Origin: Dictyostelium discoideum
Taxonomy: Eukaryota
DNA: 64,000 nucleotides
Reading direction: 5' to 3'
Assembly (NCBI GenBank): GCA_000004695.1
Contig: CM000151.3
Span: forward strand, 1,440,001 to 1,504,000
Shown: piece by piece, positions 18,001 to 59,700 of the stretch
Layout of the letters: each line of letters starts with the position of its first letter
Numbering within the stretch: position 1 is the first letter of the stretch
Program-made: the position numbers and the translations under genes
The notes under the pieces: generated by a model
What the model was told of the DNA's origin: nothing
Seen by the model: the letters and a program-made list of their open reading frames with translations, nothing else
Database searches by the model: none

Positions 18001-19004
18001 CTCTTACACTTTTCCTTTATAAAAAGAATTTAGTTAAACATTTAAATGGTGCAAATTCAATTATGCCAATCATACCAACATTGGGAGATTTAGAAGAATT
18101 AAATGAAAGATTATCACATCAATCATTAACAACTAGTGGTAAATTCTCTGGTGGTGGTGGTGGTGGTGGTATTGATTTCATTGATCAATTACAACAAAGT
18201 ACTGGTATAACTTTTGGTTTAATATTTAAAGCTACAACTCTTAAATTATCACCATTGGTTGATGGTGCAATTTTAAATGAAAATTATAATAAGAAATTAA
18301 CATCAATCTCTGCTTCTTCATTTGGTAGTGGTAGTTTTGGTCTTGGTTCTAATGGTGTTGGTAGTGTATTATCAATTGAATTGATTACAACTTATCTCTC
18401 TTCAATCATTACAATATTCCAACATCGTATGGTACATTTTACATTATCACAAAGATTCTTTAATCAAGTATTTTGTTGGATTGGTGCTTTAATAATGAAA
18501 GGTTTCATGTTGAGACAAACTTTTTGTACAGAAACATTTGCTACCTTTGTTAAAACAAAGATTGACTTTTTAACTAGATGGGCCGATGATATTGGTAATG
18601 TTTGGGTTGGTGATGTCGCTAATGCTTTCCAACAAGTTAGAGAGGTCATCAATGTTTTAAATATTAAAGATAAAGAAAAGATCATCGATGATAAAATACG
18701 TAAACAATATTGTCCAACTTTAAATTCAAATCAATTGAAACAAGTCTTATCTTTATTCTCTCCTGGTGAGTTTGGTGGTAAACGTGTCTCTGCTAAAGTT
18801 ATCGCCTCCATTTGTCCACCAAATAAATCCTCTGCTGGTCAATCCTTTGTTCAAGATGAAAACAAATTAAATACAATTCCAATTGATTCTTTACATTATT
18901 TAGAAATTCAAGATATTAAAACACTTTCTTTACCACTCTCTATAAGACAAACAATTGAAACTGAAATCATTAATTTAAAACAACAAATTGCTTGTAAAAA
19001 ATAA
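12059..19004 (+). CDS. myoJ: Class V-type unconventional myosin heavy chain, 2245 aa. It has a motor domain, six IQ motifs, a roughly 1000-aa coiled coil and a C-terminal DIL (dilute) cargo-binding domain. Exons: 12059..12829, 12919..13068 and 13188..19004.
   Basis: Motor-domain motifs are GESGAGKTE and [12 protein letters not shown]|[14 protein letters not shown]...NYHIFYQ|LLSGASEE. The two tiny introns have donors GTAAAAA at 12830 and GTAAGT at 13069, and acceptors tag at 12916-18 and cag at 13185-87. IQ motifs ([14 protein letters not shown]..., [14 protein letters not shown]... and others) fall near nt 14750-15180. A long Q/E/K-rich heptad region follows, then a DIL-like tail (...[42 protein letters not shown]...). 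The exon sum is 257+50+1938 = 2245 aa, which is the length I recall for Dictyostelium MyoJ (Myo5B). The symbol is assigned from memory of that length and domain order, not from a search. Confidence 0.8.
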
Positions 19005-19248
19005 TAATAAAAAAAATAAAAAATAAAATTTTATAAAAATTTAAAATTATTAATTTGTAAAAATAAAAAGCTTTGTAATAATTATAACTATAATAAAATT
19101 TTATTTGGTTTCTTTTTTTTTTTTGATTGGATTTCTTGTAAATTTGGTAATATTTGGTAATTTGAAGTTCATATTAAGGAATTATAATTTTGAAATATAG
19201 TGTTGTTATTTTTACAATCATTACTACTTTTTTTTTTTTTTTTTTTTA

Positions 19249-19990
19249 AAAAAGACATCCTGTTTTTAAATAATTTAGTATTTAAAATTAAATAAATCAA
19301 ATAATAAAATTATAAGAGTATTTGATTAGATGAATTGGTCGAAGGAGCTAAGATTCGGAAGCACCGATTTTTGGAATATAATATACTTTTCCAGCTAATT
19401 TTCCTTAATTAATTTAAGGAAATTGTTTGGGTCTTTAAATTTGTATGAAAGTTTAAATTTTTTTTTTTTTTTTTTTTTCATTAATATTTATTAATCACAG
19501 TTTATCCATCCATAATTAATGGTTTTATCTATTTATTTTAATTTTAGAAAGTAAAGAAGATACTCCTTTTATTCATTTGATTTTTTTTTTTTAGGATTGA
19601 TGAGATCAATTTTCTATAAAAAAAAAAATCAGTTGCTTAGATTGATTGATCGAATGAGACAGGATTCGGGAGCACTGATTCAGGAATACAATATACTTTG
19701 CAAGTTAGTTTCCTTTAATAAAATCATTTAGGTCATTAAAATTTCTCTGATCTCTTTAAATCTTTTGCTTTTTATTATTTAATTCTTGAGTAGTTTATAG
19801 CATTTATTAAATTAGGTCGTTGTAATTCTAATGTTCCCTTACATTAAAGAAAAAATGACCATGTGGGTCTAGATTTTCTTTATGGTGGAGAAGTTCAATG
19901 GTGAACTTCTTGCATGATTTTTTTTTTTTAACTTAATATTAAAAATAAGGATTAACCAAGTAAGATAAAGAAAAGCACTTCCCAATTTAA
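19249..19990. repeat. Series of oligo(T)-tailed modules, oligo(A) on the minus strand, including two diverged copies of a roughly 90-bp core (about 19322-19410 and 19640-19730)
   Basis: Copy A reads gattagatgaattggtcgaaggagctaagattcggaagcaccgatttttggaatataatatacttttccagctaattttcctt. Copy B reads gcttagattgattgatcgaatgagacaggattcgggagcactgattcaggaatacaatatactttgcaagttagtttccttt. They are about 75% identical. T-runs sit at 19229-19247, 19441-19466, 19581-19590 and 19911-19921. The modules lie just 3' (minus sense) of the TRE-like element. Confidence 0.5.
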
Positions 19991-20128
19991 TCAACATTTT
20001 TTTTTTTTTTTTTTTTTTGATATAAATAAACTATTGTAGTATACGATTAGTATGTTATTTTTATTTATTTATTTTAGGTTTTTTAGTTTTTGTGAATTTA
20101 AAATGGTATGTTATTTTAGATTAGGTAA

Positions 20129-23100
20129 TTAATAATTAATTGGTGGTGTAATTGTTGGAATTGGTTCATTTGTGTTTATGCTCCATTCTTTTTTAAATTT
20201 TTTGATTGTTTCGGACCATTGGGTTTCTTTTTGAGTTTTTGTGAGGTTGTTTTTAATTGAGTATTGGTTGAAGTTTGATAATGTTCTTGAATATTCCAAT
20301 CTTATTAGCTTGTGCCATTTTGATTTTAATATATCATAATCTAGTGTTGTGTTGTTTATTTGATTGTTCCGATTATCAAATGATTGAGTTATATTGATGT
20401 CAAATAATGATTTGCATAACCATATCCATATTTGGTGAATAACTAATGAGATTATGTTCCAATATGCATGTGTTCTGACTAGATCAAGATTTGTGTTTAT
20501 ATAATTCCAGTTGAACCTGTATTTTTTATATTGTGCGTTTTCTGCAAAATGAAAATTAATATTGATAGTTGGATCTGGTTTAAATGCTTTGTTGTTTGTT
20601 TGTGGTTTATAAATGAGTGTGTATAATTTTGTTGTTTGGTTTTTTGTTAGTGACCAGTTTTTGTTTCTATTGCAATTTTTATATAAAAAATATTTTAATT
20701 TGTCGTGGTTTATGAAGTTGATTGTGTGCTGACAATTGAAAAACAAATGACCATAGGGATCATTATTCATTTCATTGTTGCAAATGGGGCAAACTTTGTT
20801 GTGTAGATGATTAATTGGAAGACATCTAGCATGGAATCTTTGCATTGTATCACGGCCTTTTGGATCTTTTAATTTTTGAATTTTGACAAATAGTTGGTCG
20901 TATGTGTATTTCCATAATAGTTGTATTGATTGTTGGTGCGAAGTAAGAAGTAGATCTGAATATTTCTTGCCAACATAGTCTTTTGATTTGCATTGGTGAT
21001 TGTTGAGTATTGTCGAGTAGAATTCTTTGAGTGTTGGTGGTAGTGAAATATTATTTGTGGTTAATGTTAGAGAGGTTTGGTTTTTTATTAATATTGGTTG
21101 TAGGATTTGAACTTTATCTTTTAGATGTCCAATTTGAGTTGCATAGTTTTCCCATTTTTTTGATTTTTATAAGGTATGGAGAAGAGATTGATTTGTTGAT
21201 GATTTGATCCATCCAACTTATCATGTATATTGAATTGTTTGCAGATTTATGCATTTGTAAAAATCTGTTGTATATCCAAATCTTTTGAGCAACTTGTCGT
21301 AATTGTATATTCCACATACCCCAACCACCTTCTTTTAATGGTTTTAATGATCTATCATAACACATCAAAGGTATTTTTGCACGGAATGGATGGTTGATGT
21401 GTTGTTTTTAATGGAATTGGTATTAGAGTTGGTGATTCAGAATTTGCGGGAGAATTCATAAACCATGAGATTAATTTATTAATTTGAATTTCTTCATCTT
21501 TTGTAAATTCTTCAAGGTATGATAAATATGTTATTGGTGATAGTGAGTAGGTGTTTATGATGGTTGTTTTTGTTTTTAATGTTGTGCCACTAGTTTTCCA
21601 TAGTACTAATGATTTAATCAGTGTTTTCATTGTTTCTGGTAATTTCCTATGTAAACCCCCTATGATTAAAGAAATAGCCAAGGACTCTTTCTGATTGATC
21701 TTTTTTGGTTATTGGGATTCTTTTTGATTGTGGAATGTTGTTTATTATGTGTTTATCAGTGATTTTGTGGGGGTTGATTTCTATTATTGCACTTTTGTCA
21801 AAATTTAATGATGATGATGTTGAAGCGCAGAAATTATCGAAATGTTTGATTGATTGTTGTTGTTGTTCGTAGTTGATGTTGTATGTTGTAGAGTCGTCTG
21901 CAAATTGGGTAAATTTGATTTTAATTTGTGGATTGGGTGAAATTGGTAATCCAATTATTGAATTGTCTGCATTTATTGTTCTTGCTAATATTTCAATTAC
22001 AATTACAAATAAAGTGGCTGAGATTGGGTCACCTTGTTTTACACCTCTTTTAATATCGAATTTTCTGGTCGTTTTACCATTAATTGAAATTTTTGCTTGT
22101 GAGTCAGATAATAGCTTGTGGATTAAATTTATTAATTTTATTGGTATACCAATATGAATTAATGTTCTTTTAATGCTATCGTGAGAGATAGAATCAAATG
22201 CTTTAAAGAAGTCAAATAGTGTGATGATACCAGGGAGGTTTTTAGATTTGAGGTAGTTGATTAATTCATTGATGTTGATGATGTTGTCTATGATGAATCT
22301 GTGGGGTACGAAACCAGTTTGGTTGTTATTGATGATGAAAGGAAGTATTCTCAGAAGACGTGCATTGATTACTTTGAGAGGGATCTTGTAATCAGTGTTT
22401 AGAAGTGTAATGGGACGACGATTTGATATGAGTAAGGGGTTGCCTTTCTGGTATATTGTGTGTATAAGACCTTCGGTGAATTCTGTTGTGATGTGGTGTG
22501 GATTTTCTAGTATATCGTTGAATAATGTAGTGAGAATTGGTTTAACTTGGTTTAAATGATTAATGTAAAATGCATTTGTAACTCCATCTGGACCGGGTGA
22601 TTTGTTGGGGTTACTGGTTTTAATTGCAGCTTCAACTTCATCTTTTATAAAAGGTGAGTCTAAACCATTCCAATATTCATTTTTTATGATGGGCCATGTG
22701 TTTAGCATGAGCTAGTGAGTAATTGGACAACATATTTGTAAGCTATATAGATTTGTGTAGAATTCAACAAAAGCATTTTCAATTTGGTCGGGGTCGGATG
22801 TAATGATGTTTCCATATTGGATTGATTCAATTTTTGCATCTTTTGATCTTTTGTTTAGTATTGCTGATAGATACTTGCTAGGTATTTCTCCATTTATATG
22901 TTTTTTTAATATGTTTGTGTGGTTTTGATGTAATTTGTTTTTGTTACATATAATATTGTATTCAGTGATGCATTGTTCTTCAAGATGTTTGAATTTTGCT
23001 GCTTTTTCTAATAGTATTTGTTTTGCACGTTGAGTTTGTTTGTCTTTGTTATATTGATAGTTTTTTAGAGTTTTAATAATTTTTGATTTTACTTTTGACC

Positions 23101-23953
23101 AATTTGTAAATTGATTGTTGATGTGTTATTGTGATTAGTTATTAAATGATTGATAATATTGATTGCTTCATGGTCATTTGCAGTACCAGGTGATAATATC
23201 CATCTTTTCTTATGTTTATTTATTTGAAAAGGTGAAGAAATTGTTGTTGATATTGGATTATGATCTGATAATGAAGATGGAATTTGGTGGACTTGTGTAT
23301 ATATATTTTCAGGGTCTATTCTATTGTATTGAGTATATATTCTATCTAATCTGTTACCATGTGTATGAGTTGGAGTGGTTTTTAAATTCACCTTGATCAA
23401 TTAGATGGTGTTGGTATGTGTAGGATTGGATAATATCATCTAATAGTGAATTGTCGTTGTGGATACAGTTGAAATCTCCTGCGATAATAGATACATGTTG
23501 GGATTGGTTTGGTATTGGGTTTGTTGAGTGGTTGTGGAGAAGTGTTTGTAGTGAAGTTGCATATGAATTCTTTTTGATGGTATTATTTGATGCTGGTGCG
23601 TAAATTCCAAGAATACCAATTGGTAATTGATTTGGAAATATAACGTCTGCTAAAATAGCTCTACCATCAATTGTTGATATGTGTTTGAGTTTGAGTGTGT
23701 TTGGGTTATGGTTAATGATGATTACACCATTTCCTCGTTTGGTGACAGAGATGATGTGATCGGGAAAATCATGTTTAAGTTGTAATGGTGATGAATTGAG
23801 TTCAGTGAGTATTGAAATTGTTGGACGCGGTGTAAGTTTTGATATAAGTAGTTGTAGTGTGTCAACAGGTTTTTGGTAGGAATTGTGGTGATTGTTGGGG
23901 TTTTCAGTGAATCCTCTACAATTCCATGTTATAAAGTTGATTTTTGAGCTCAT
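20129..23953 (-). pseudogene. TRE-like ORF2 with endonuclease, reverse transcriptase and a C-terminal Cys-rich domain, broken by multiple frameshifts
   Basis: The six-frame pieces are 23354..23953, 23089..23400, 21647..22708, 21355..21681, 21114..21368 and 20129..20845, all on the minus strand. They are collinear but fall in different frames. Confidence 0.7.
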
Positions 23954-25156
23954 ACCTTACTAGGTTTGGAAGCACCAGTATTGACTGGTTGTGTAGTCAG
24001 GGCATTGCTGCTTCTTCTTGGATTTATTGGATTTGGAGTTGGTGCACTTGGTTTGTTTGGTTGAGATTGTAGAGGTTTTTGTGGTACAATTGTTGGATCG
24101 GTTGGATTGCTCATTGATAATGAGTTTTTCCCGTTATTATTATTTGAAGAATCACTTTTGTGTGAAATTTCATTATTGTTTTGGGATTGATTGTTAATAT
24201 CAAGTGATTCATTTAGTATAGCTTTTGAACCACTATTTTGAAGTGAGTTATTATTGCGATTGGAATTTGCAATTTCGTTGATTGGTGGGGTGTTAATGTT
24301 GTTTTTTGGTGGTTGATTGTTTTTGTTCATGTTTGGGTTTGTGATGGCATTTTTTATAGTTGTTGCCATATCTGCATTTTTTGCATGTTGAATTTTGTGT
24401 TTAGTGACACTACGTGTTGCAGCTTTGATATATCTTGTGATACCAGATGGTTGTTCGATCTTTTGATCAACAATGTTGTGTGTGTGATCAATTAGATGAT
24501 ATGTTATAATGTAACTTTTAAACGCAACAGCATATGAGTATGTGACAGTAAATGATTCAATTGATGTACAACTGGTGAATTTAGTGAGGTTGTTTGTAAT
24601 TGCCTCGTTTGCATGTTTGGGTGAGTACGTTTTAATGAATGTTTTAATGATTGCATAATCATTTGATGATATATCGAATCTATAGTTGAGTTTGTCGATA
24701 TTTAGTGCAAGTTGGTTTTGAAGGTTGATTATTGAAGTTAATTTATCAACGTTGCAATTTACGAAGGCAGTTGCACCAATTATTTTAAATGCTGATGGCG
24801 ACAGTATATCTTCGAAGAGTTTGTGAATGTTTTTGTGAATTTGTTGGATTCTTGTGTCATCTTTAGAGGTTAATTCTTCACGGATGTGTGGTTGATTAAA
24901 GTAACACTTAATGTTGATGGTGTTATTGTTTTTTTCTAAGAAAGAGAGTGGTCTTGTGATTGATGGAGGTGCAATGATATCTAATTGATTATCAAGTCCT
25001 TTGTTTAGTGAGAGTTGGTTTGTTGGGGTTTGTTTTTTAGGTGTGTCGATTTTTGCACTTTTGTTTTTTGTTGTTGAGGTTGTGGAGGTATTATTTGTAG
25101 GTTGTGTTGTTATCTGTATGATTTAACTGTAATTCAGTTGAGTGATCATCAGCCAT
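23950..25156 (-). pseudogene. TRE-like ORF1 with one apparent frameshift near the N-terminus
   Basis: The minus strand reads ATGGCTGATGATCAC... (MADDHSTELQLNHTDNNTTYK*). From the +1 frame a continuous frame follows: ...NNTSTTSTTKNKSAKIDTPKK...HAKNADMATTIKNAITNP...ASKPSKV, ending at 23950. Confidence 0.55.
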
Positions 25157-25311
25157 TGTTGAAAAGTATATAGGACGATAGCCCTTGCTTTATTGAGCAA
25201 AAAAAGGGTAAAATTAAGAGGAATGAATGTGGCGGTGAAGATATAACAGTGATTTATTTATTATATGTATAAATTCTCGTTTATTTCTTTGTTTTTTCGG
25301 TATCAACATAT

Positions 25312-25322
25312 AGAATCGAACC
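25312..25322 (-). promoter_or_regulatory. External B box (exB, GGTTCGATTCT) about 29 bp downstream of tRNA-Phe
   Basis: The minus-strand sequence GGTTCGATTCT matches the B-box consensus GGTTCGANTCC. Dictyostelium tRNA genes often carry a second, external B box downstream (established knowledge). Confidence 0.6.
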
Positions 25323-25350
25323 GGCGATCATACCAACAATTAAAAAAATT

Positions 25351-25424
25351 TGCCTCAGGCCGGGATCGAACCAGCGACCTTAAGATCTTCAGTCTCACGC
25401 TCGTACCAACTGAGCTACTAAGGC
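25351..25424 (-). tRNA. tRNA-Phe, anticodon GAA
   Basis: The minus-strand sequence GCCTTAGTAGCTCAGTTGGTACGAGCGTGAGACTGAAGATCTTAAGGTCGCTGGTTCGATCCCGGCCTGAGGCA folds as a cloverleaf with a 7-bp acceptor stem, the D-loop AGTTGGTA, the anticodon loop CTGAAGA and the T-loop TTCGATC. It is 74 nt with discriminator A, is followed by a T-rich Pol III terminator, and has no encoded CCA. Confidence 0.9.
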
Positions 25425-25480
25425 TTTTATGAAATTTCTGTTTTTTATAGCAGTATAAATATTATAAAACGGAAAAAAAA

Positions 25481-25810
25481 CAAATCTCTTTTTTTGATTA
25501 TTTCATTTTTCATATAAAAAAGACTTAAAAAACAAATAAATAAATAAATAAACTATCTTAAAAAGCCATCTTTTTACTTTATTGTAATTTATTATTTGTT
25601 TCGTTTTGAGAATTTTGCGTAGCAAAATTTTCAAAAAAAAGCAAAAAATAATCAGATCGAAAAAAAACAAACAACAACAACAATCTCTTTTTTTGATTAT
25701 TTCATTTTTCATATAAAAAAGACTTAAAAAACAAATAAATAAATAAATAAACTATCTTGGACAAAAAAGATGTTTTAATCAAAAGTAATAATACAATTCA
25801 AAATTCGAAA

Positions 25811-25851
<41 letters not shown>

Positions 25852-26150
25852 TAAACCAACCCCTCTTTTAGAGACCCTGTAAAAAAAAAAAAATAAAATA
25901 AAATAAAATGAGATCTAGCATCTCAAGGAGAAGCAAATAATAATTGCGTTATCCAATTCAAAAAAAAAAAAAAAATATTATAAAACTCTTAGACCATGTA
26001 AAAAAAACTAAAAATAAAATGAGATCTAACATCTCAAGGAGAAGCAACTAATAATTGCGTTATCCAATTCAAAAAAAAAAAAAAATATTATAAAATATTT
26101 TCAAAGAGAAGCAACTAATAAATGCGTTATCCAATTCAAAAAAAAAATAT
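25481..26150. repeat. Repeat cluster immediately 5' of tRNA-Phe. It holds a 77-bp direct repeat at 25481-25557 and 25681-25757, plus about 2.5 tandem copies of a roughly 120-bp unit at about 25870-26150.
   Basis: The 77-bp repeat is caaatctctttttttgattatttcatttttcatataaaaaagacttaaaaaacaaataaataaataaataaactatctt, present twice about 200 bp apart. The tandem unit reads ...gaccatgtaaaaaa..aaaatgagatctaRcatctcaaggagaagcaaMtaataattgcgttatccaattcaaaaaaaaa..atattataaaa... The first copy starts about 57 bp upstream of the tRNA 5' end. Confidence 0.6.
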
Positions 26151-27055
26151 TGACAATCAAAAATGTCGAATTTTCCCTTTTGATGGTTTTCTGTAGATAA
26201 TAACCCAAAAATGGTCATTACTTTTATTGAAGCTATAGTCGTTCGTTACAATAATAAAAATTAGTATTATTTTAATTATTCACTTTTAGCAGATTATGTC
26301 AACTCATTTAATAAAATATAAAATGTAAATTAAAATATTATTATCAGTTTTTTTTTTTGGATTTTACTATTTAATAATAAATAAATCTTATTTGTTTTTT
26401 CAATTCTATGTATATTCAATCAATTTAATTTAATTATAAAATATAAAGAGAATTGAAAAATTAAATAATTTAAGATTAAATAGATCACTTTTGTTAAATT
26501 TACTTTTGTTCCATTTGCTTTACTTTTATTTTCTTTTTTTTACATAGACTACTTTTGTAACACAGTTATAAATTATGTATCGAAAGAATTCTTTGTAATG
26601 AAAGTAAATGTATCTAAATTAAATGTAACAAAGTATATGTAACGAAAGTGTTCTATTGTAATCCAATCGAAAGTAATAATTATTCTTTCTTTACTTCTTT
26701 TATTGATAGTGTAGAGTTATAGATATTAAAAAAAAAAAAAAAACAAAGTTGCATTAGAATACACAAAATGCATTAATGAAATATTCCAAGAAAAAAAAAA
26801 AAATATTCCTGAAATAAAAAAACGGCAAGTTTGAAAAAGGATAAGGAAATTTTCTTTTTTTTTTTGTTCTAAAGTACACTTTTTTATTTTTTTTTTTATT
26901 TTTTTTTTTAATTATCAGATTGATAAATTATAAATTTTGTAAATTTGATTTGAACTATAATGAATAAATTATTGTGAAGAAAAAAAAAAAGGGAAATAAA
27001 AATGGAAAAAAAAAAAAGTATAAAAAAAAAAATTTTGAAAAAAACTCTTTTTCTT

Positions 27056-28117
27056 TTAAAGTAAACCAAGTTGTTTGATATATTGGAATTGCTCAGGAAT
27101 TTCTTGAAGAGCGGCAACTGCAAAATCAACTTCTCTATTTTCAGCTTTTGCCATTGTTGTGTGGAATGGTACAAATTGGAAATTATCAAATTGTCTTTCT
27201 GGTAAATCATCATCAAATTTCTCCCTATTTAATAATAAATAAATAAATAAATAAATAAGAGTTAGTGAAAAACAAAGATATACAATTAATAGTTTTCTTT
27301 TTTTAAAAAAAAAAACTTACATTGTATCCCAAGGACCATCACCAACACCAATACAAATGATTGAAATTGGATATTTTGAAGCTTCTTCAATAGCTTTAAT
27401 GGTTTCATTTACAACGGATACTTCACCATCAGCAATGATTACTAAAATATGATATGCCTTTGCTGCAGCGGTAATATTTATTGTTTCTCTAATGATTGGC
27501 GCAAATGAAGTTGGACCTGATAGAGAAACCAATGGAGTGATTTCATTATATTTTTGTAAAACTTCATTGAAACCAAAACAAGGTCTTTCGGTTGTAAAAG
27601 AGAATACACTCTTATCGGTAGTTCTTGAATCACCAAAACCATAGGTTGGTAATAAATTATCATCATCAAATACTGATAATGTTTTGCCAATAATTTCAAT
27701 TGCTTCTTGGTATGGATTTAACATACCTGGTTGAATATCATGTAAACATTTACCTCCAAATGTTTTTTTACCATTCCATGTATTACTTTTTGTCTAAATT
27801 TTTTCAAAATAAATAAAATAAAATCAATTGAATAATTAATAATCTATTATTATTATTATTATCTATTATTATTATTATTATTATTTTTATTGCACCCTAC
27901 TTACATAATCAATTCCAATGATTAAATTTGATGATTCTAAACCAGCAGTACGTAAAGCATCTTGTACTTCTTGTAAGGATTGGAATTTATCTTTAATTGG
28001 TTGGAATTTAACTTTATTTTCTAATGGTTTCTTACCGTTGTAGCCACCTCCGCCACCACTTCCACCACCACCACCATGTCCCATTGTTCCTTGATGTTTT
28101 GATCCTCCGCAACCCAT
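27056..28117 (-). CDS. Copine-A/vWA domain protein of about 284 aa. It has a probable N-myristoylation motif MGCGGS and a Gly-rich N-terminus, with no C2 domains. Minus-strand exons: 27905..28117, 27321..27793 and 27056..27224.
   Basis: Exon 1 reads MGCGGSKHQG...SSNLIIGIDY and ends at donor GTAAGT. Exon 2 reads TKSNTWNGKKTFGGKCLHDIQPGMLNPYQEAIEIIGKTLSVFDDDNLLPTYGFGD...ILVIIADGEV...ICIGVGDGPWDT(M), which is the copine A-domain signature (cf. LIVGIDFTKSNEWTGK...GFGD...DG). It ends in phase 2 at GTAAGT. Exon 3 reads EKFDDDLPERQFDNFQFVPFHTTMAKAENREVDFAVAALQEIPEQFQYIKQLGLL*. Confidence 0.7.
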
Positions 28118-28169
28118 TTATTTATTTATATGTGTAAGTGTTTTAAAAGAGAATAAAAAAATAATATTT

Positions 28170-52517: not shown

Positions 52518-52590
52518 GCTCGATTAGCTCAGTCGGCAGAGCGTGGTGCTAATAACGCCACGGTCGCAGGTTCGATCCCTGCATCGAGCA
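52518..52590 (+). tRNA. tRNA-Ile, anticodon AAU
   Basis: GCTCGATTAGCTCAGTCGGCAGAGCGTGGTGCTAATAACGCCACGGTCGCAGGTTCGATCCCTGCATCGAGCA folds as a cloverleaf with acceptor GCTCGAT/ATCGAGC, the D-loop AGTCGGCA, the anticodon loop CTAATAA and the T-loop TTCGATC. It is 73 nt. Confidence 0.9.
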
Positions 52591-52623
52591 ACGATATTTT
52601 AAAATATTGTGAAATAGATTACA

Positions 52624-52634
52624 GGTTCAATTCC
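52624..52634 (+). promoter_or_regulatory. External B box (GGTTCAATTCC) 34 bp downstream of tRNA-Ile
   Basis: Matches the B-box consensus GGTTCGANTCC. It is the same arrangement as at tRNA-Phe. Confidence 0.6.
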
Positions 52635-52696
52635 CACTTCTGAAAAAGGGAAATAAAGATCCTGGAAATTAAAAAAAAAAAAAAAAAAAAAAAACC

Positions 52697-53961
52697 AAAC
52701 AACAAAAATGCTAGTGGATTTCAAGTTATTAATTTAATGAGAACCAAAAGAGCAAGATACCCACTAAAAGTAGGGGGCTGGAACATTTGGAATATAGAAT
52801 TGAGACAACTGGCGCAGAAACTTTGGATCATAAACCAGTTCATCCTAGCACTAGAAACCAAACAAACAAACTCATCTCATCACAAAAGCTGGGAATATCA
52901 GATCCAAAAAAACAAATTCACATCCAGATACCTAAAAGAAAACTTAGACGAATGGAACAAAATAAGAATAAAAAAAGCAATTTTCAACAATAATCTCACA
53001 TCCATAAAAAACGAAAATGGACAACCACTTTCACTGGCAGAATGGTATACCACAATTCAAGACCAAAATCCACCATCCCTAAAACGGAATTCCAATCATC
53101 TCTAAACTTAAGAGGCTACAGCTATAATCAACTCTTCAACAACATACTGAAGATAAAAGACCCTAAAACAAGAGACACAATGTTTAGATTCCATGCCAGA
53201 TGCCTTCCAATAAACTACCTTCACAACAAACAATGCCCACTCTGCAAAGAAGATATGAGCAAAGACCCATACGGTCACCTGTTCTTCTCATGCAAGAAAA
53301 CAAAACAATTCATAAAAATAAATAAACTCAAAAATTTCATCTATATTACCACAGGCAAAGGTAAAAACTGGCACCATACAAGAATTAGGCAAAATAACAA
53401 TTTCATTAATAGAATAACTCCAAAATTATCACCGATAGCCAAAAAAGATCAAGAAGTGAATGCAGATTACGCCAACCACAGATTCCACAAAGAATACTTT
53501 GAATGGAACTATAAAGCAATAGACTATGATCTAACCAGATCATTCGCATATAGAAACCTAATGGCCCTTATCCTCCACAACATTTGGATTTGGATTTGCA
53601 ATCAAATATACAGTGAAGATCCTTTAACAAATGAATCACTATCATACAGCTCCCTTCTAAAGAAATGGCACAAATTGGCCACTCTAGAATACATCAAAAA
53701 AGCAAAAGATCTAAAAAACTTATCAGCAAAAGACCATAATAACTTCAAAGATCCTAAGATCCTTCTCACCTCAACGATCAAGCTAAGAAAAACAACAGCT
53801 AATTACTATTGTATTCCAGAATCATCTCTCCCAAATATTATATCTTTTGATCAATTCATATGATTAAAATAACCCTTCAGCTTAAATGATAAGCCTATAA
53901 ATAAATATTAAATAAAAACTCGTATTAACACAGATGGATATATATCAATCTTGTTAATCCA

Positions 53962-53995
<34 letters not shown>
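52697..53995 (+). mobile_element. 5'-truncated fragment of a TRE3-like non-LTR retrotransposon. It holds the ORF2 C-terminal Cys-rich region, a 3'UTR and an A29 tail, downstream of tRNA-Ile and its external B box.
   Basis: The ORFs at 52737..53105 and 53042..53863 are about 35-40% identical to the C-terminal ORF2 pieces of the 20129..21368 element (MFRFHARCLPINYLHNKQCPLCKEDMSKDPYGHLFFSCKKT against MQRFHARCLPINHLHNKVCPICNNEMNNDPYGHLFFNCQHT). They sit in two frames, so there is a frameshift. The 3'UTR is about 100 bp and is followed by an A-run at 53967-53995. The flanks read aaaaaaaaaCCAaac (52669-52699) and aaaaaaaaaCCAtct, which may be an A-rich target-site duplication. Confidence 0.7.
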
Positions 53996-53997
<2 letters not shown>

Positions 53998-54767
53998 ATC
54001 TGATAAAGAATTTTAAAATATTATATATTTTATTTTAAAATTCTTAATTAGATTATTTTAAAAAAATAATACTTGTATGACACAATATTTAAAAAAAAAA
54101 AAATAAAAAAAAAAATTGTATTATCTTATTTATACCAAATTTTTCTTTAACATTAAATAATTCAAATAAAAATCGACTCAATTAAAATAAAAAAAAAATT
54201 TTAGATAAATATTAAAAATAAAAAATAAAAAAACAAAACAAAACAAAATAATTAGCAAATTAGTAGTTATAAAATTTTGATATCTAACCCAATTTCGTTA
54301 CCAAATATATTTATAATTAATTAATTAATTTTTTTGACTTTTAATTTTAAAGCAAAAAGGAATTTTGAAGGACCGATTCATTAAAATTTAGAATATTAAA
54401 TTTTTTTTTTATTCTGAAGTATAATAATAAAAATAATATAGATACCCCCCTACCTCTAACTGAAAAAATAAAATAAAATCTATAAATAGTGGTAAGTATC
54501 TAATTTAAGCAAAGATTAATTAATAAAGTTTAGGTATTTTTTTCGGATTTTTTTTCTCTTTTAAAAAAGTAGAAAAAAAAAAAAAAATCTAAAATCTACT
54601 TGTTTAAATTTGTCATTGACCAATGATATAAAAACATAGATATTTTTAAATTTCTTTTACTTCAAAAACTTGTATTAATTTGAAATAAAATTTAATATAC
54701 TAACAAAATTTTTTTTTCTGAGTGAATAATTTAAAGAAAAAAAAAGTTTAAAAAATCATGGAATTTC

Positions 54768-56718
54768 ACTCAACAAAAACCGAAATTAAAGAACTAAATT
54801 TACAAGTATGTAAAGAATCCGATATTGCAATCATAGGTGTTGGATTTAGATTACCAGGAGATAACAACGAACTAACTGAACTCTGGAAAAATTAAAAATG
54901 TGTTTTCGATGGGATTCAAGAATTTGAAAATGAAAGAATAACAAAAAATTATTCAATTCTCGACCAATTTAGTAGCAATAAAGCTGGTTTGGTAAATTTT
55001 GAACAATGGAAAAATTTCGTCCCAATTTTTTTTGGTATTTCAAATTCAGAATGTTCAAATATTGATCCACAACAAAGGTTATCATTAATATCGACTTGGG
55101 AAGCCTTGGAAGATGCTCATTTAGACCTGTTGAACTACGTGGAACAAATACGTCAGTTTTTATGGGTAGTTTCTCAATTGATTATACTCATGGTTTAAGA
55201 GATAGAAGTGATTCAAAACCAAATACTCTTGCATCAAATTTTCATTGCCTTTCAAATCGTATTTCATAATGTTTTGATTTGAGAGGTCAATCATTATCAA
55301 TTGATACTGCATGTTCATCATCTTCAAATGCAATTATTTCAGGATGTAAAACAATCATTGATGGTTCTTCAAACATTTCTATATGTGGTGGTTCAAATCT
55401 AATTATTGATCCATGTTTCTCAAATTCAATTTCATCTCAAGGAATGAATAGTCATTTGGGTCATTGTATGTCATTTGATGCTTCTGCCGATGGTTATGTT
55501 AGAAGTGAAGGATGTGGAATTTTAGTTTTAAAGAAATTATCTGAACCAATTAAATATGGAAATAAAATCTATTGTGAAATAAAAGGTTTTAGTTCAAATA
55601 ATGATGGAAATGTTGAAAAAGGTAATTTCTTTGCTCCTTCAGTTCTTGGTCAATTTTTAAATATAGAATTGGCTTTCAAATCAACCGTATTACCAGATGA
55701 TATTTATTTTGTAGAATGCCATGGTACAGGTACACCAGTTGGTGACCCAATTGAATTAGAATCAATTTCTAAGGCTTTAAAAATTTCTATTTCAAGATCA
55801 CCAAATTCACCATTATTAATTGGCTCATTTAAATCAAACATTGGTCATACTGAAGCAGCATCTGGTGTTGCATCATTAATAAAATGTTGTTTAATGTTTC
55901 GTCATCGTAAATTGGTTCCAAATATTAACTTTAATAAACCAAATCCAAGAATTAATTTTAAAGATTGGAATTTAAAAGTTGTTACTGAAAAAATATCATT
56001 CCCAAAAGACAAACAAATTTCAATAATTTTGGTGTTACTGGTTCAAATACATGTTTTATTTTATCTGAATACATTGAAGATAATAATAACAATAATGAAA
56101 TGGAAACTACAAATTTGTTAGAAAATGACGAATTTTTAATTCCATTCTCATCAATGACAAATAAGTCAATGGAAAAATATAAAAATCAAATCGAAAAATT
56201 CTAAGTCAACCAAATGGATTTTGTTGAATTTGTTTCAAAACAAATTTGTACGAAAACAACTCAATTAAGTCAAAGATCAGTGGTTTTTTCAAAATTAAAT
56301 TGGGAAGGTTATAATAAAGAAAGTATTTCAACTCAATCAAATAAAGTTTCAAATTTTATGATTAAATCAATTGAACCAACTGTTGTTTTTGTATTTCCTG
56401 GTCAAGGTCCACAATTTAATAAAATGGGAATTGAATTATATGAAAAAGAACTTGATTTTAGAAATTCAATGGATGAAAAAAATGAAATCTTTAAATCATT
56501 ATATGGTTATTCTGTTTTTGATAAATTAAGAAGTATTAAGGATGATGATAAAACTTTAATTGATTTACCATCATTTGGACAACCTGCAATGGTAATGATT
56601 GAAATATCATTATTTAAATTATTAAAAAATCATTGGAATATTCAACCATCTTTCATTGTTGGTCATAGGTATTTATAATTTTTTTTTTTGGAAATTAAAA
56701 TTAATTAATCATCCAAAT

Positions 56719-56758
<40 letters not shown>

Positions 56759-59700
56759 TTAATAGTTTAGGTGAAGTGGCTGCATCATTTTGTTCTGGTA
56801 TGATAGATTTAGAAACATGTTGTAAAATAGTTTATGTTAGAAGTACTTTACAAGATTCACTTGTTGGATTTGGTAAAATGTTATCTGTAACAATTACTAA
56901 AGAAGAATATAATAAAAATTATTTATCACAATTCCCTTCATTAGGAATTGCATGTTTTAATTCAAATAATTCAATTGTAATTTCTGGTAATGAACAAGAT
57001 TTAATTAAATTATCAAATCAATTAAAATCAAATTCAAAACCAAATTTATTTTTAGGTGCAAATGTCTCATATCATTCTTAAAGTCAAATTAAAATTAAAA
57101 ATGAAATGATTTCTGGTATTGGTCAGTATAAAAGTAATGAAGCAGTAACTCCAATAATTTCAACTTTAACATGTGAATTTTTTAATCCAACTCGACATCC
57201 ATTTAATGCTGAAAATAATTTTAAAAGTTCAAAATCACCTGTTTACTTTAAAGGAGCAATTGAAAGTTTATATAAACATATTGAAGATAATAATATTGGT
57301 AGTGGTGCAGTAACATTTGTTGAAATTCCTCCTCATCCAGTTTTATCATTTTATTTAAATGAATTAAAACCACAAAATTCAAATCATTTTTCACCAGATT
57401 CAATTTCAATTTTACCAACATTAAATAGAAAAAAAAATGATATAAAAGAAATTCAAAAAACTGTTTCAACTTTATATTGTCAAGGTTGTAATGTTAATTT
57501 TAAATCTCAATTCAATGGTATCAATAATATGAATGGTATAATTAACGTAAATAAAATATAATCAAAAGATTTACAAGATATCAATGGGATTTACAAAATT
57601 ATTGGAATGAAACATATGAAGCTTATTTGAATAAAATTAATGGTCCACCAATTACAATCTTGGGAAATTCAAATAGTTTAACCTCACCTTTAATTTCAAT
57701 GACAACTTTAAATGATATTTCAAAAGAACCATTCCATTGATCATGTTGTAAACGGTAAATTTTATTTCCCAGGTTGTGGTTATATAGATAATATTTTAAA
57801 TCTTTACCCAAACCAAGATTTATTAATTGAATATTTAGAATTTAAACTTCCATTTATTTTAAAAGAAAACAAAAATTTTGAAATGACAACAAATATAACT
57901 CAAACTGCACCAAATCAAAATAATGTTTATTTTCATATTAAAGATCAAAAAACAAATCAATGGGTTCAAAGTTCAAGAGGTAATTTTTCAGTTTTTAAAA
58001 AACAATTTTCCAATTCTCCCCGACCAACAATAAATAAATACAATATTAAATCATTGAAATTAGAACATAACTATAGTCATTTGTTAAAATCAGATTTTTA
58101 TGATTATGTAAAAAAAATTACAGGAATTAATTTCAAAGGTTGTTTCCAACGTGTTCAAGAATGCTGGATTGGAGAAAATTATTCTATTTTGGTTAAAATT
58201 TCAACTAATAATTTATTATCAGTTCATGATAACAAAGTATTTTTAAACCCATCAATAATTGATAATTGTTTACAAGGATTTTTTGTATCATCATTTATTG
58301 ATCCAAGTGTTGCTGTATTTGATAGAATTGAACATTTAAAAATTTATTCTTCAAATATTCCAAATGTTTCATCAAAGTTTAATGATGAAGAAACTTTTAT
58401 TTATGCAATTGCTAAAAATAATACAGATAGTAGTTTACCAAGTAATTCATTTAGTGGTTCAGTTGTTGCATTTTCAGAGAATGGTCAAATAATATTAGAA
58501 TCAAAAAATGTTATTGGTACATCATTAGTACCAGTTACTGATTGTACTATACCAGAATATCCAACTGAAGATTTTTTTTCATTTATTCTGGAGCCAATTG
58601 ATTCACAAATTTCAATAACACTTCCAAATCAATCAGTTAATGAGTTTGAAAATGAAAAGAACTCTCAACTAATCGATAGTTCAATCTATAAAAAGATGAT
58701 TTCAAATTTATTATTTAATAATCTAAAATTAAGACTTTCAAACCAAATTTCAAAAGAATTATTATTTAACAATTCTGTTGATCAATTATTAAAATTATTT
58801 TTAAACAAAGCCAATTCAAAATATTCAAGATTATTACATTTTGTTTTTGATACATTAAAAGTATCGATAGATGATTTGGATGAAATTAAATGTGATTTTA
58901 CAGGTTCAAGTGAACAATTATTATTTTCAAAATCATCAAAAATCATTTTAAAATTATTATTCCCAAGACCAAACATGATGATGAAAATCAAGATACACCT
59001 CAATCATTATTAGATAGTGGATTAATTGATAATTTATTTTCAAAATTAAATTTTGATATTTATTCATTATCAATTGCAAAAAAAATAATTTAATCAATTA
59101 AACCACTTTTGGACAACCAAACATTAAATTTTGAAAGTTCTTTCCAATCATAATCATTTAAACCATCTTATTATGATATTATTGCATTATCAAATGTTTT
59201 ACATGTAAATGATATTCAATTTAGTATCGAGCAAATTAATGGATTATTAAAATCAAATGGTGATCTATTATTTATAGAAATACCAAAATCAATAATTTAT
59301 TATATAACATTTGTTAGTTTTGAACAATGGTGGATTTTTTCTGATTACAACATTAGAAATGATAGATGTTGTATGGATGCAGATAATTGGGTAAAAATAT
59401 AATCAGTAAATGGTTTTAAAAATTCAATAATATCAAGTTCAAATAATTCATCACTTCCATTTATAATTCAAACTAAAAAACAAGAATTATTATTTGAACC
59501 AATTAACCAACATATGGATTTTGATATTATTTTATATACTGGCAATAGTAATGAAAATTCAAAAATTAATGATTTTATTAGTTTAATGAAAAATGAATTG
59601 TTTTTAAATAATAATGGTAAAATTAATATAATAAAAACAATTAAAGAACTTAAAAATCAAAAAATTCAAGATGAAATCAAATCAATTATTTTTTTTTTAC

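Follow-up and report, generated by a model that had tools for sequence, protein, structure and literature searches.

Repeats upstream of a Dictyostelium discoideum tRNA-Phe gene, read as a stack of three TRE5-A insertions

The DNA considered here is a 64-kb stretch of the Dictyostelium discoideum genome with a G+C content of 22.8%, called the window below, and all positions without a locus name are positions in it. Our subject is a block of repeats directly upstream of a tRNA-Phe gene. The gene is on the minus strand, so upstream of it means towards higher coordinates. It is PheGAA-9, listed at AX4 chr2:1465351-1465424 in S2 Table of PMC5391098, which corresponds to an offset of 1,440,000. The same offset fits a tRNA-Ile gene of the window (IleAAU-6, 52518-52590, listed at 1492518-1492590), and at 27060-28120 there is a spliced gene of copine-like type that agrees to 100% with DDB_G0272196 on AX4 chromosome 2. 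The window is accordingly AX4 chr2:1,440,001-1,504,000. We propose, with a probability of roughly 0.93, that the non-LTR retrotransposon TRE5-A (formerly DRE) inserted three times in succession at one site about 47 bp upstream of PheGAA-9, and that positions 25471-26147 are the result. The feature is of a known kind, from a thoroughly described family, in the reference genome and at a tRNA gene already listed as a TRE5-A target; only an internal deletion in one of the copies is unusual.

Two repeat systems make up the block, set apart by a run of 38 adenines (A38). The one closer to the tRNA is a direct repeat, 25473-25559 against 25673-25758, which is 96.5% identical over 87 nucleotides and exact over the last 77, with a start-to-start spacing of 199 and a BLAST E of 3e-35 within the window. 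The outer one is a tandem array of three units (25850-25975, 25976-26085 and 26086-26147) with a period of 110-111 bp. Its first two units match each other with E = 6e-38, the third is shorter owing to a 5' truncation and a 9-bp internal deletion, and every unit is closed by oligo(A), namely A16, A15 and A10. A preliminary description of this DNA had noticed both systems. It gave a 77-bp sequence present twice about 200 bp apart, which agrees with our measurements, and about 2.5 tandem copies of some 120 bp, where the array is real and the period is shorter. It also placed the start of the repeat about 57 bp from the tRNA, which is correct for the exact part; the homology, and with it the element, begins at 25471-25473, that is at -47. 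On the question it raised about copy number, no further copy of either unit was found elsewhere in the window, and both unit types recur at other Dictyostelium loci, where they adjoin tRNA genes. A literal search of literature text with pieces of the repeat units gave no match.

In order to identify the repeats we used a comparison set of 11 fetched loci. One of these (L007, from the D. discoideum assembly GCA_054883475.1) served as a genomic TRE5-A.2 reference. Its element, on the minus strand, has the order A(n)-An-B-ORF1-deltaORF2-An-B-C-An, where A, B and C are modules and ORF is an open reading frame. The 5' part consists of at least 3.5 tandem 199-bp units and then an oligo(A) run; the middle is a B-module with the start of ORF1, an ORF1 of 444 amino acids, an ORF2 stub and oligo(A); the 3' part is a second B-module, a C-module and A31. 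Of the published TRE5-A ORF1 primers (PMC4559204), Rep-109 matches exactly and Rep-108 is found in both B-module copies with one extra base. The junction between the B- and C-modules carries the deletion described for TRE5-A.2 in PMC3159450. Because of these primer matches and this TRE5-A.2-type deletion, we treat the L007 element as a verified TRE5-A.2.

Window positions 25473-25758 align with L007 22955-22671 at 97.6% identity over 287 bp (E = 3.5e-136), and the 199-bp units that they match sit directly 5' of the B-module and ORF1 that bear the TRE5-A primers. The direct repeat is therefore what the spacing of roughly 200 bp had been taken to recall, a pair of duplicated A-modules from the 5' end of TRE5-A. 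The units of about 110 bp, which had earlier been left unrecognised, are TRE5-A C-modules. The block can be parsed into three stacked insertions, which we call E1, E2 and E3 counting outward from the tRNA (Table 1). E1 is assigned to TRE5-A because it combines an A-module with a C-module that is 92-100% identical to that of the primer-verified copy. The earlier suspicion of a relic of an element that targets the region upstream of tRNA genes was thus well founded, as module homology, the -47 position and orientation agree on it. Only the number of elements has changed, from one relic to three stacked insertions. Of the candidates then named for comparison, the TRE5-A modules, DGLT-A and Skipper-2, the first is supported by alignment to the L007 element, and neither of the other two is involved.

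Table 1. Features at the tRNA-Phe locus, ordered by position in the window
Feature	Position	Strand	Evidence or remark
tRNA-Phe(GAA), integration target	25351-25424	minus	ARAGORN and Rfam at 62.5 bits
Original tRNA-upstream flank, 32 bp	25425-25456	+	Unique sequence
tRNA-proximal target-site duplication AAATATTATAAAAC	25457-25470	+	Exact 14-mer, 33-46 bp upstream of tRNA
E1, whole	25471-25975 (505 bp)	+	A, partial A, last 49 bp of B, A38, C, A16
E1 A-module, copy 1	25471-25658	+	97-98% identical to L007 tandem A-modules
E1 A-module, copy 2, first 100 bp only	25659-25758	+	Alignment to L007 units
E1 B-module end, last 49 bp	25759-25807	+	Matches GGACAAAAAAGATGTTTTAATCAAAAGTAATAATACA(A)TTCAAAATTC of L007 B-module/ORF1
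E1 internal oligo(A) between B- and C-modules	25812-25849	+	A38
E1 C-module, unique part	25850-25959	+	92-100% identical to L007 C-module
E1 terminal oligo(A), A16	25960-25975	+	
E1 distal target-site duplication	25976-25986	+	With preceding As = AAATATTATAAAAC
E2, 5'-truncated: last 84 bp of C-module + A15	25987-26085	+	93-96% identical to other C-modules
E2 distal target-site duplication (AAA)TATTATAAAA	26086-26095	+	Last bases = E3 5' end
E3, ~48 bp of C-module with 9-bp internal deletion + A10	~26090-26147	+	C-module alignment
Outer remnant of first duplication, (AAA)TATT	26148-26151	+	Then unique host GACAATC...

The first base of E1 lies at -47 from the tRNA's 5' end (25424), and the 5' end of the element, which is complete, faces the tRNA. 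Its first A-module copy has one extra 5' G and is without 12 bp of a (CAA)n stretch. The B-module end matches both B copies of the L007 element and also a 5'-truncated copy that lies upstream of a tRNA-Lys gene in the same locus. E1 has a TRE5-A.1-type junction of B- and C-module, which retains the 72-bp segment that TRE5-A.2 lacks, and the internal oligo(A) is followed by GGTAAACCAACCCCTCTTTTAGAGACCCTG..., an arrangement that matches the TRE5-A.1-type copy upstream of the tRNA-Lys. An internal A-run between B and C is found elsewhere too, e.g. A33 in L007 and A18 in a D. citrinum locus (L006), and also in a D. cf. discoideum locus (L010). No ORF and no TRE5-A primer site was found in 25425-26200. 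Copies without ORFs are non-autonomous remnants and are normal for most genomic copies, so the assignment to the family is unaffected.

The C-module has been studied functionally. Its last 54 nucleotides form stems that are essential for retrotransposition, as examined with the mutations C38A, A35C, C26A and T15C, counted from the 3' end (PMC3159450). The C-module of E1 has T15, C26, A35 and C38 at these sites, and all four fall in two predicted stems (minimum free energy -11.3 kcal/mol, z -3.1). In published work the A-module acts as a Pol II promoter on the plus strand, and the C-module as a weak promoter on the minus strand; both may still be active at this locus today. An Rfam scan of 25200-26300 returned the tRNA only, apart from sub-threshold miRNA-like matches. 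These come from an 11-bp inverted repeat of the A-module, GAGAATTTTGC...GCAAAATTTTC at 25603-25631, and reach about 21-23 bits, far under the gathering scores.

The position and orientation of the block are those expected from published work. TRE5-A has its primary integration site at position 47 (47 +/- 3 bp) upstream of tRNA genes, and its insertions frequently show non-templated 5' nucleotides and target-site duplications (PMC5391098); the 5' end of the element points toward the tRNA's 5' end (PMC3159450). Integration requires a functional B box, and the ORF1 protein binds TFIIIB subunits in vitro. The 32-bp flank that separates the tRNA from the first duplication is the stretch that TFIIIB covers according to published work, and it is partly conserved at orthologous loci (window 25452-25303 aligns with the orthologous locus of strain ACTFIW, L011). 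PheGAA-9 itself has been hit de novo by TRE5-A(bsr) in experiments, with counts of 0, 55 and 11 (PMC5391098). The stack shares with TRE5-A the A-, B- and C-modules, the terminal oligo(A), the site at about -47, the orientation, the duplications, the extra 5' nucleotide and the 5' truncation. It differs in that ORF1 and ORF2 are missing throughout, and in that E2 and E3 are bare C-module fragments. The structure of E1 is neither that of the published TRE5-A.1 (AB-ORF1/ORF2-BC) nor that of TRE5-A.2 (AB-ORF1-BC).

The number of insertions is read from the duplications. A nested target-site duplication, AAATATTATAAAA(C), stands after each of the first two tails. The 14-mer next to the tRNA, AAATATTATAAAAC, is found again at 25973-25986, and its first 13 bases at 26083-26095. 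The duplication of E2 ends in the first bases of E3 (ATAAAA), and that of E1 also takes in C, the base with which E2 begins. Such nesting is what serial entry at a fixed distance from the tRNA predicts, and for this reason E3 would be the oldest copy and E1 the youngest. The units also carry different sequence variants, AAAT/TAGC in E1 and AACT/TAAC in E2, and the AACT variant of E2 is common to the L007 tRNA-Lys copy and to L011.

A tandem array can of course have another origin. A single TRE5-A insertion may have had its C-module/oligo(A) end amplified locally at a later time, by unequal crossing-over or by replication slippage. The head-to-tail arrangement of the units with a regular period of 110-111 bp is what such a process would give, as is the identical short motif after each oligo(A), and tandem duplication between A-rich tracts is plausible at 23% G+C. 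However, the units differ in their 5' end point (110, 84 and about 48 bp of C-module) and in the length of their tails. Furthermore, the base after the motif is first C, the first base of E2, and then T, which belongs to the E3 sequence, as nested serial insertion predicts. The variants of E1 and E2 differ, and both AAAT and AACT occur in unrelated genomic copies as well. The orthologous locus in L010 has an independent stack with a repeated duplication of its own, including an insert of A26 only. Finally, in the published account repeatedly targeted tRNA genes typically form TRE-TRE tandems (PMC5391098), so that a tandem is the usual outcome of repeated targeting. Taken together we think local amplification very unlikely. 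A related idea, a single element next to a true 120-bp satellite, was rejected on account of the differing truncation points and of the duplication that each unit has after it.

Several points weigh against three separate TRE5-A insertions and should be stated here. The duplication of E3 amounts only to (AAA)TATT and is masked by the poly(A) tail, and the 5' start of E3 can be placed only to within 26090-26097; E3 could have arisen by partial duplication of E2 on the spot. The tandem array could likewise result from unequal crossing-over between C-module/oligo(A) units. The boundary of E1 is ambiguous by 1 nucleotide, with the C at 25470 belonging either to the duplication or to the element. 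The identification draws on one genomic TRE5-A.2 copy, on published primers and on published positional facts, and three protein searches recovered no full-length TRE5-A.1 with ORF2. The queries were the reverse transcriptase (RT) domain of a TRE3-type element of the window, and a chimera of APE and RT with peptides deduced from published TRE5-A ORF2 primers. These searches gave TRE3-type and unrelated reverse transcriptases only, and the primer-derived peptides were in none of them.

If the block was formed by three TRE5-A insertions, its history might be reconstructed as follows. In the published model, the pre-integration complex of TRE5-A would recognise a tRNA gene occupied by TFIIIB and TFIIIC, via contacts between the ORF1 protein and TFIIIB, and the ORF2 endonuclease would nick the DNA just past the TFIIIB footprint. 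Target-primed reverse transcription would then copy the RNA at the site, beginning at its C-module/oligo(A) end, which commonly yields 5'-truncated copies with flanking target-site duplications. In this scheme E3 (about 48 bp of C-module and A10) would have entered first. E2 (84 bp of C-module and A15) would have entered next, between the tRNA and E3, with a duplication that took in the first bases of E3. E1 would have come last, its 14-bp duplication taking in the first base of E2. Each newcomer would shift the older copies outward, resulting in an apparent tandem array. All three insertions have the 5' end toward the tRNA's 5' end and the oligo(A) tail away from it.

The same tRNA gene in related genomes provides a useful comparison. 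In another D. discoideum assembly (L001, GCA_054883475.1) the same stack is found, and over 776 bp it departs from the window only in having A31 for A38. At the orthologous tRNA-Phe of D. discoideum ACTFIW (L011) there is just one C-module insert, about 100 bp long and followed by A10. In D. cf. discoideum (L010, 8600-9560) the PheGAA-9 orthologue carries an independent TRE5-A stack in which the duplication TCGTTATAATAATT is repeated three to four times, and which includes a 17-bp insert with A17 besides the A26-only insert. In the L010 stack the internal oligo(A) that lies between B and C is the site of a long, expanded (TAA)n microsatellite.

In D. citrinum ACTFIV (L009, 8290-8780) no TRE5 was found at the PheGAA-9 orthologue. 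This locus has a pair of 143-nucleotide long terminal repeats (LTRs) that are 99% identical and enclose about 200 bp beginning with a primer-binding-site-like sequence, TGGCGACCCGCGTTCGATTCC. Some 14 bp separate the start of this upstream element from the tRNA-Phe, and it is DGLT-A-like by the criteria of PMC5006619; judging from this structure it looks like an internally deleted DGLT-A-like element. The occupants thus differ between L009, L010, L011 and the window, from which it follows that this gene was hit independently in each lineage. Four related lineages have four occupants, namely two TRE5-A stacks that differ from each other, one lone C-module and an LTR element resembling DGLT-A, which illustrates the fast turnover of safe-haven sites.

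Another rival explanation is that the repeats of the window are relics of something other than TRE5-A, e.g. a DGLT-A solo LTR, Skipper-2, TRE5-B or TRE5-C, or simply low-complexity duplications specific to the locus. DGLT-A also targets the region upstream of tRNA genes, a DGLT-A-like LTR pair occupies the orthologous site in D. citrinum, and the C-module of TRE5-C is 78% identical to that of TRE5-A (PMC3159450). However, comparison with the DGLT-A-like LTRs of L009 and with L005, a locus rich in LTR retrotransposons, gave no similarity, the region starts at -47 where DGLT-A starts at -13 to -33, and it has oligo(A) tails instead of LTRs; on these grounds DGLT-A was rejected. Skipper-2 goes downstream of tRNA genes and was rejected as well, since the feature is upstream of the tRNA and is without LTRs. 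TRE5-B has no C-module. The 92-100% identity of the E1 C-module to the primer-verified TRE5-A copy is well above the 78% of TRE5-C, and the units are not locus-specific. An origin from any of these other sources is hardly credible to us. The short fragments E2 and E3, which are 93-96% and 92-95% (over 37 bp) identical to the other C-modules compared, are probably TRE5-A as well.

Similar short insertions are found at other tRNA genes. In D. citrinum (L006) an insert upstream of a tRNA-Gln starts at -49 with 40 bp and A18, continues with a C-module that shares 84% identity with the window unit, and closes with A12; its 14-bp duplication, TTATGGAATATTGT, is perfect. In L007 the duplication of the 5'-truncated copy upstream of the tRNA-Lys measures 13 bp.

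The unusual part of the stack is the interior of E1, which lacks everything from position 100 of the second A-module to the last 49 bp of the 3' B-module. The junction reads ...AAACTATCTT/GGACAAAAAAG..., with about 2 bp of microhomology; in 40 bp it is AAATAAATAAACTATCTTGGACAAAAAAGATGTTTTAATC. We infer that the deletion most probably arose after integration, because among the fetched loci the junction has a second occurrence only in L001, at the orthologous site, and because in published experiments engineered TRE5-A elements without ORF1 retrotransposed at only 0.5% of the rate of those that contain it. It is possible, although we consider it unlikely, that E1 was inserted as it is. It would then be a 505-bp SINE-like mini-TRE5-A with an A-module promoter, 49 bp of B-module and a C-module hairpin, which may have been mobilised in trans, or which may have been formed by a template switch of the RT from the 3' B-module to the A-module. 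If this were true, a natural minimal non-autonomous TRE5-A would exist, and stacks such as that of PheGAA-9 would supply substrates for the shuffling of modules. The A-A'-deltaB-C structure of E1 could be of specialist interest, but only if more copies share its junction.

Oligo(A) also stands at every module border of TRE5-A. There is a tract of about 40 As between the last A-module and B (L007 22466-22500), another of about 40 between the end of ORF2 and the 3' B-module (L007 20716-20750), and one of 31-38 between B and C (the A38 run of the window). The pattern suggests, from sequence comparison, that modules may have been gained by read-through or 3' transduction across TRE-TRE tandems. 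For the C-module 3' transduction has already been suggested (PMC4559204). The L007 locus has a further example of stacking, at 20180-20400 and past the tail of the TRE5-A.2 element. A degraded C-module remnant with A8 is followed there by another element, whose first parts are some 60 bp of A-module, then A14 and then a B-like start that is divergent. This is another multi-copy TRE5 stack, whose tRNA is outside the fetched locus.

The PheGAA-9 stack can be compared with several known systems. It shares with the TRE-TRE tandems of PMC5391098 that a new copy enters at about -47, on the tRNA side of the resident copy, and leaves the latter undisrupted. It differs from them in that it consists of three very short natural copies that resemble a 110-bp tandem repeat, and in that its nested duplications let the order of insertion be read directly. 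Severely 5'-truncated LINE-1 elements of animals likewise consist of the 3' untranslated region and poly(A), are made by target-primed reverse transcription and are flanked by duplications, and internally deleted copies that keep a promoter and a 3' recognition structure resemble the SINE/SVA-type parasites of animals. In contrast to animal LINE-1 and SINE elements, insertion here is site-specific at Pol III genes, and the 3' recognition element is the C-module hairpin of TRE5-A. Ty3 and Ty1 of yeast, like DGLT-A, also use Pol III complexes as landmarks of safe havens, with one tRNA gene being hit repeatedly. However, these are LTR elements that use an integrase, and DGLT-A inserts 13-33 bp upstream with LTRs and a primer-binding site.

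We regard the locus as a clear textbook case of site-specific retrotransposition that struck one Pol III gene repeatedly, and it matters little beyond annotation. For genome scans it implies that short tandem repeats closed by oligo(A), if they lie about 50 bp upstream of a tRNA gene in Dictyostelium, should be taken for TRE5 copies that are 5'-truncated and stacked.

The other side of PheGAA-9 is occupied as well. Downstream of the tRNA, a degenerate TRE3-type non-LTR element covers about 19156-25302 on the minus strand and is oriented like the tRNA. The ORF fragments for APE and RT show 94-97% identity to TRE3-type proteins of D. discoideum, and an ex-B-box-like sequence lies at about 25303-25330. 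This block of about 6.1 kb has no counterpart in ACTFIW (L011), which has no TRE3 there and represents the empty site. The idea that the tRNA is flanked by insertions on both sides is therefore borne out, with TRE5-A upstream and a TRE3-type element, missing in ACTFIW, downstream.

The distal part of the TRE3 block, 19156-19996, contains several poly(T) runs, and a comparison of 19100-20030 with the rest of the window yielded no assignment. In L001 a second TRE3 stands in tandem (18147-21062, 98.6% identical to window 25099-22181), past the position (19983) from which the window is host sequence again. Either this TRE3-TRE3 tandem was lost from AX4 or was never in it, or the assemblies differ.

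The other tRNA gene mentioned above, IleAAU-6, has no TRE5 upstream. Downstream of it (52600-59000) there is an ex-B-like box, then a short piece that ends in A24 (52671-52694) and then a 5'-truncated TRE3. This TRE3 is of a different subfamily and in one stretch is identical to DDB_G0285835/P0224. A tiny earlier insertion may have left the A24 as its tail, in which case the downstream side of IleAAU-6 would be another stack.

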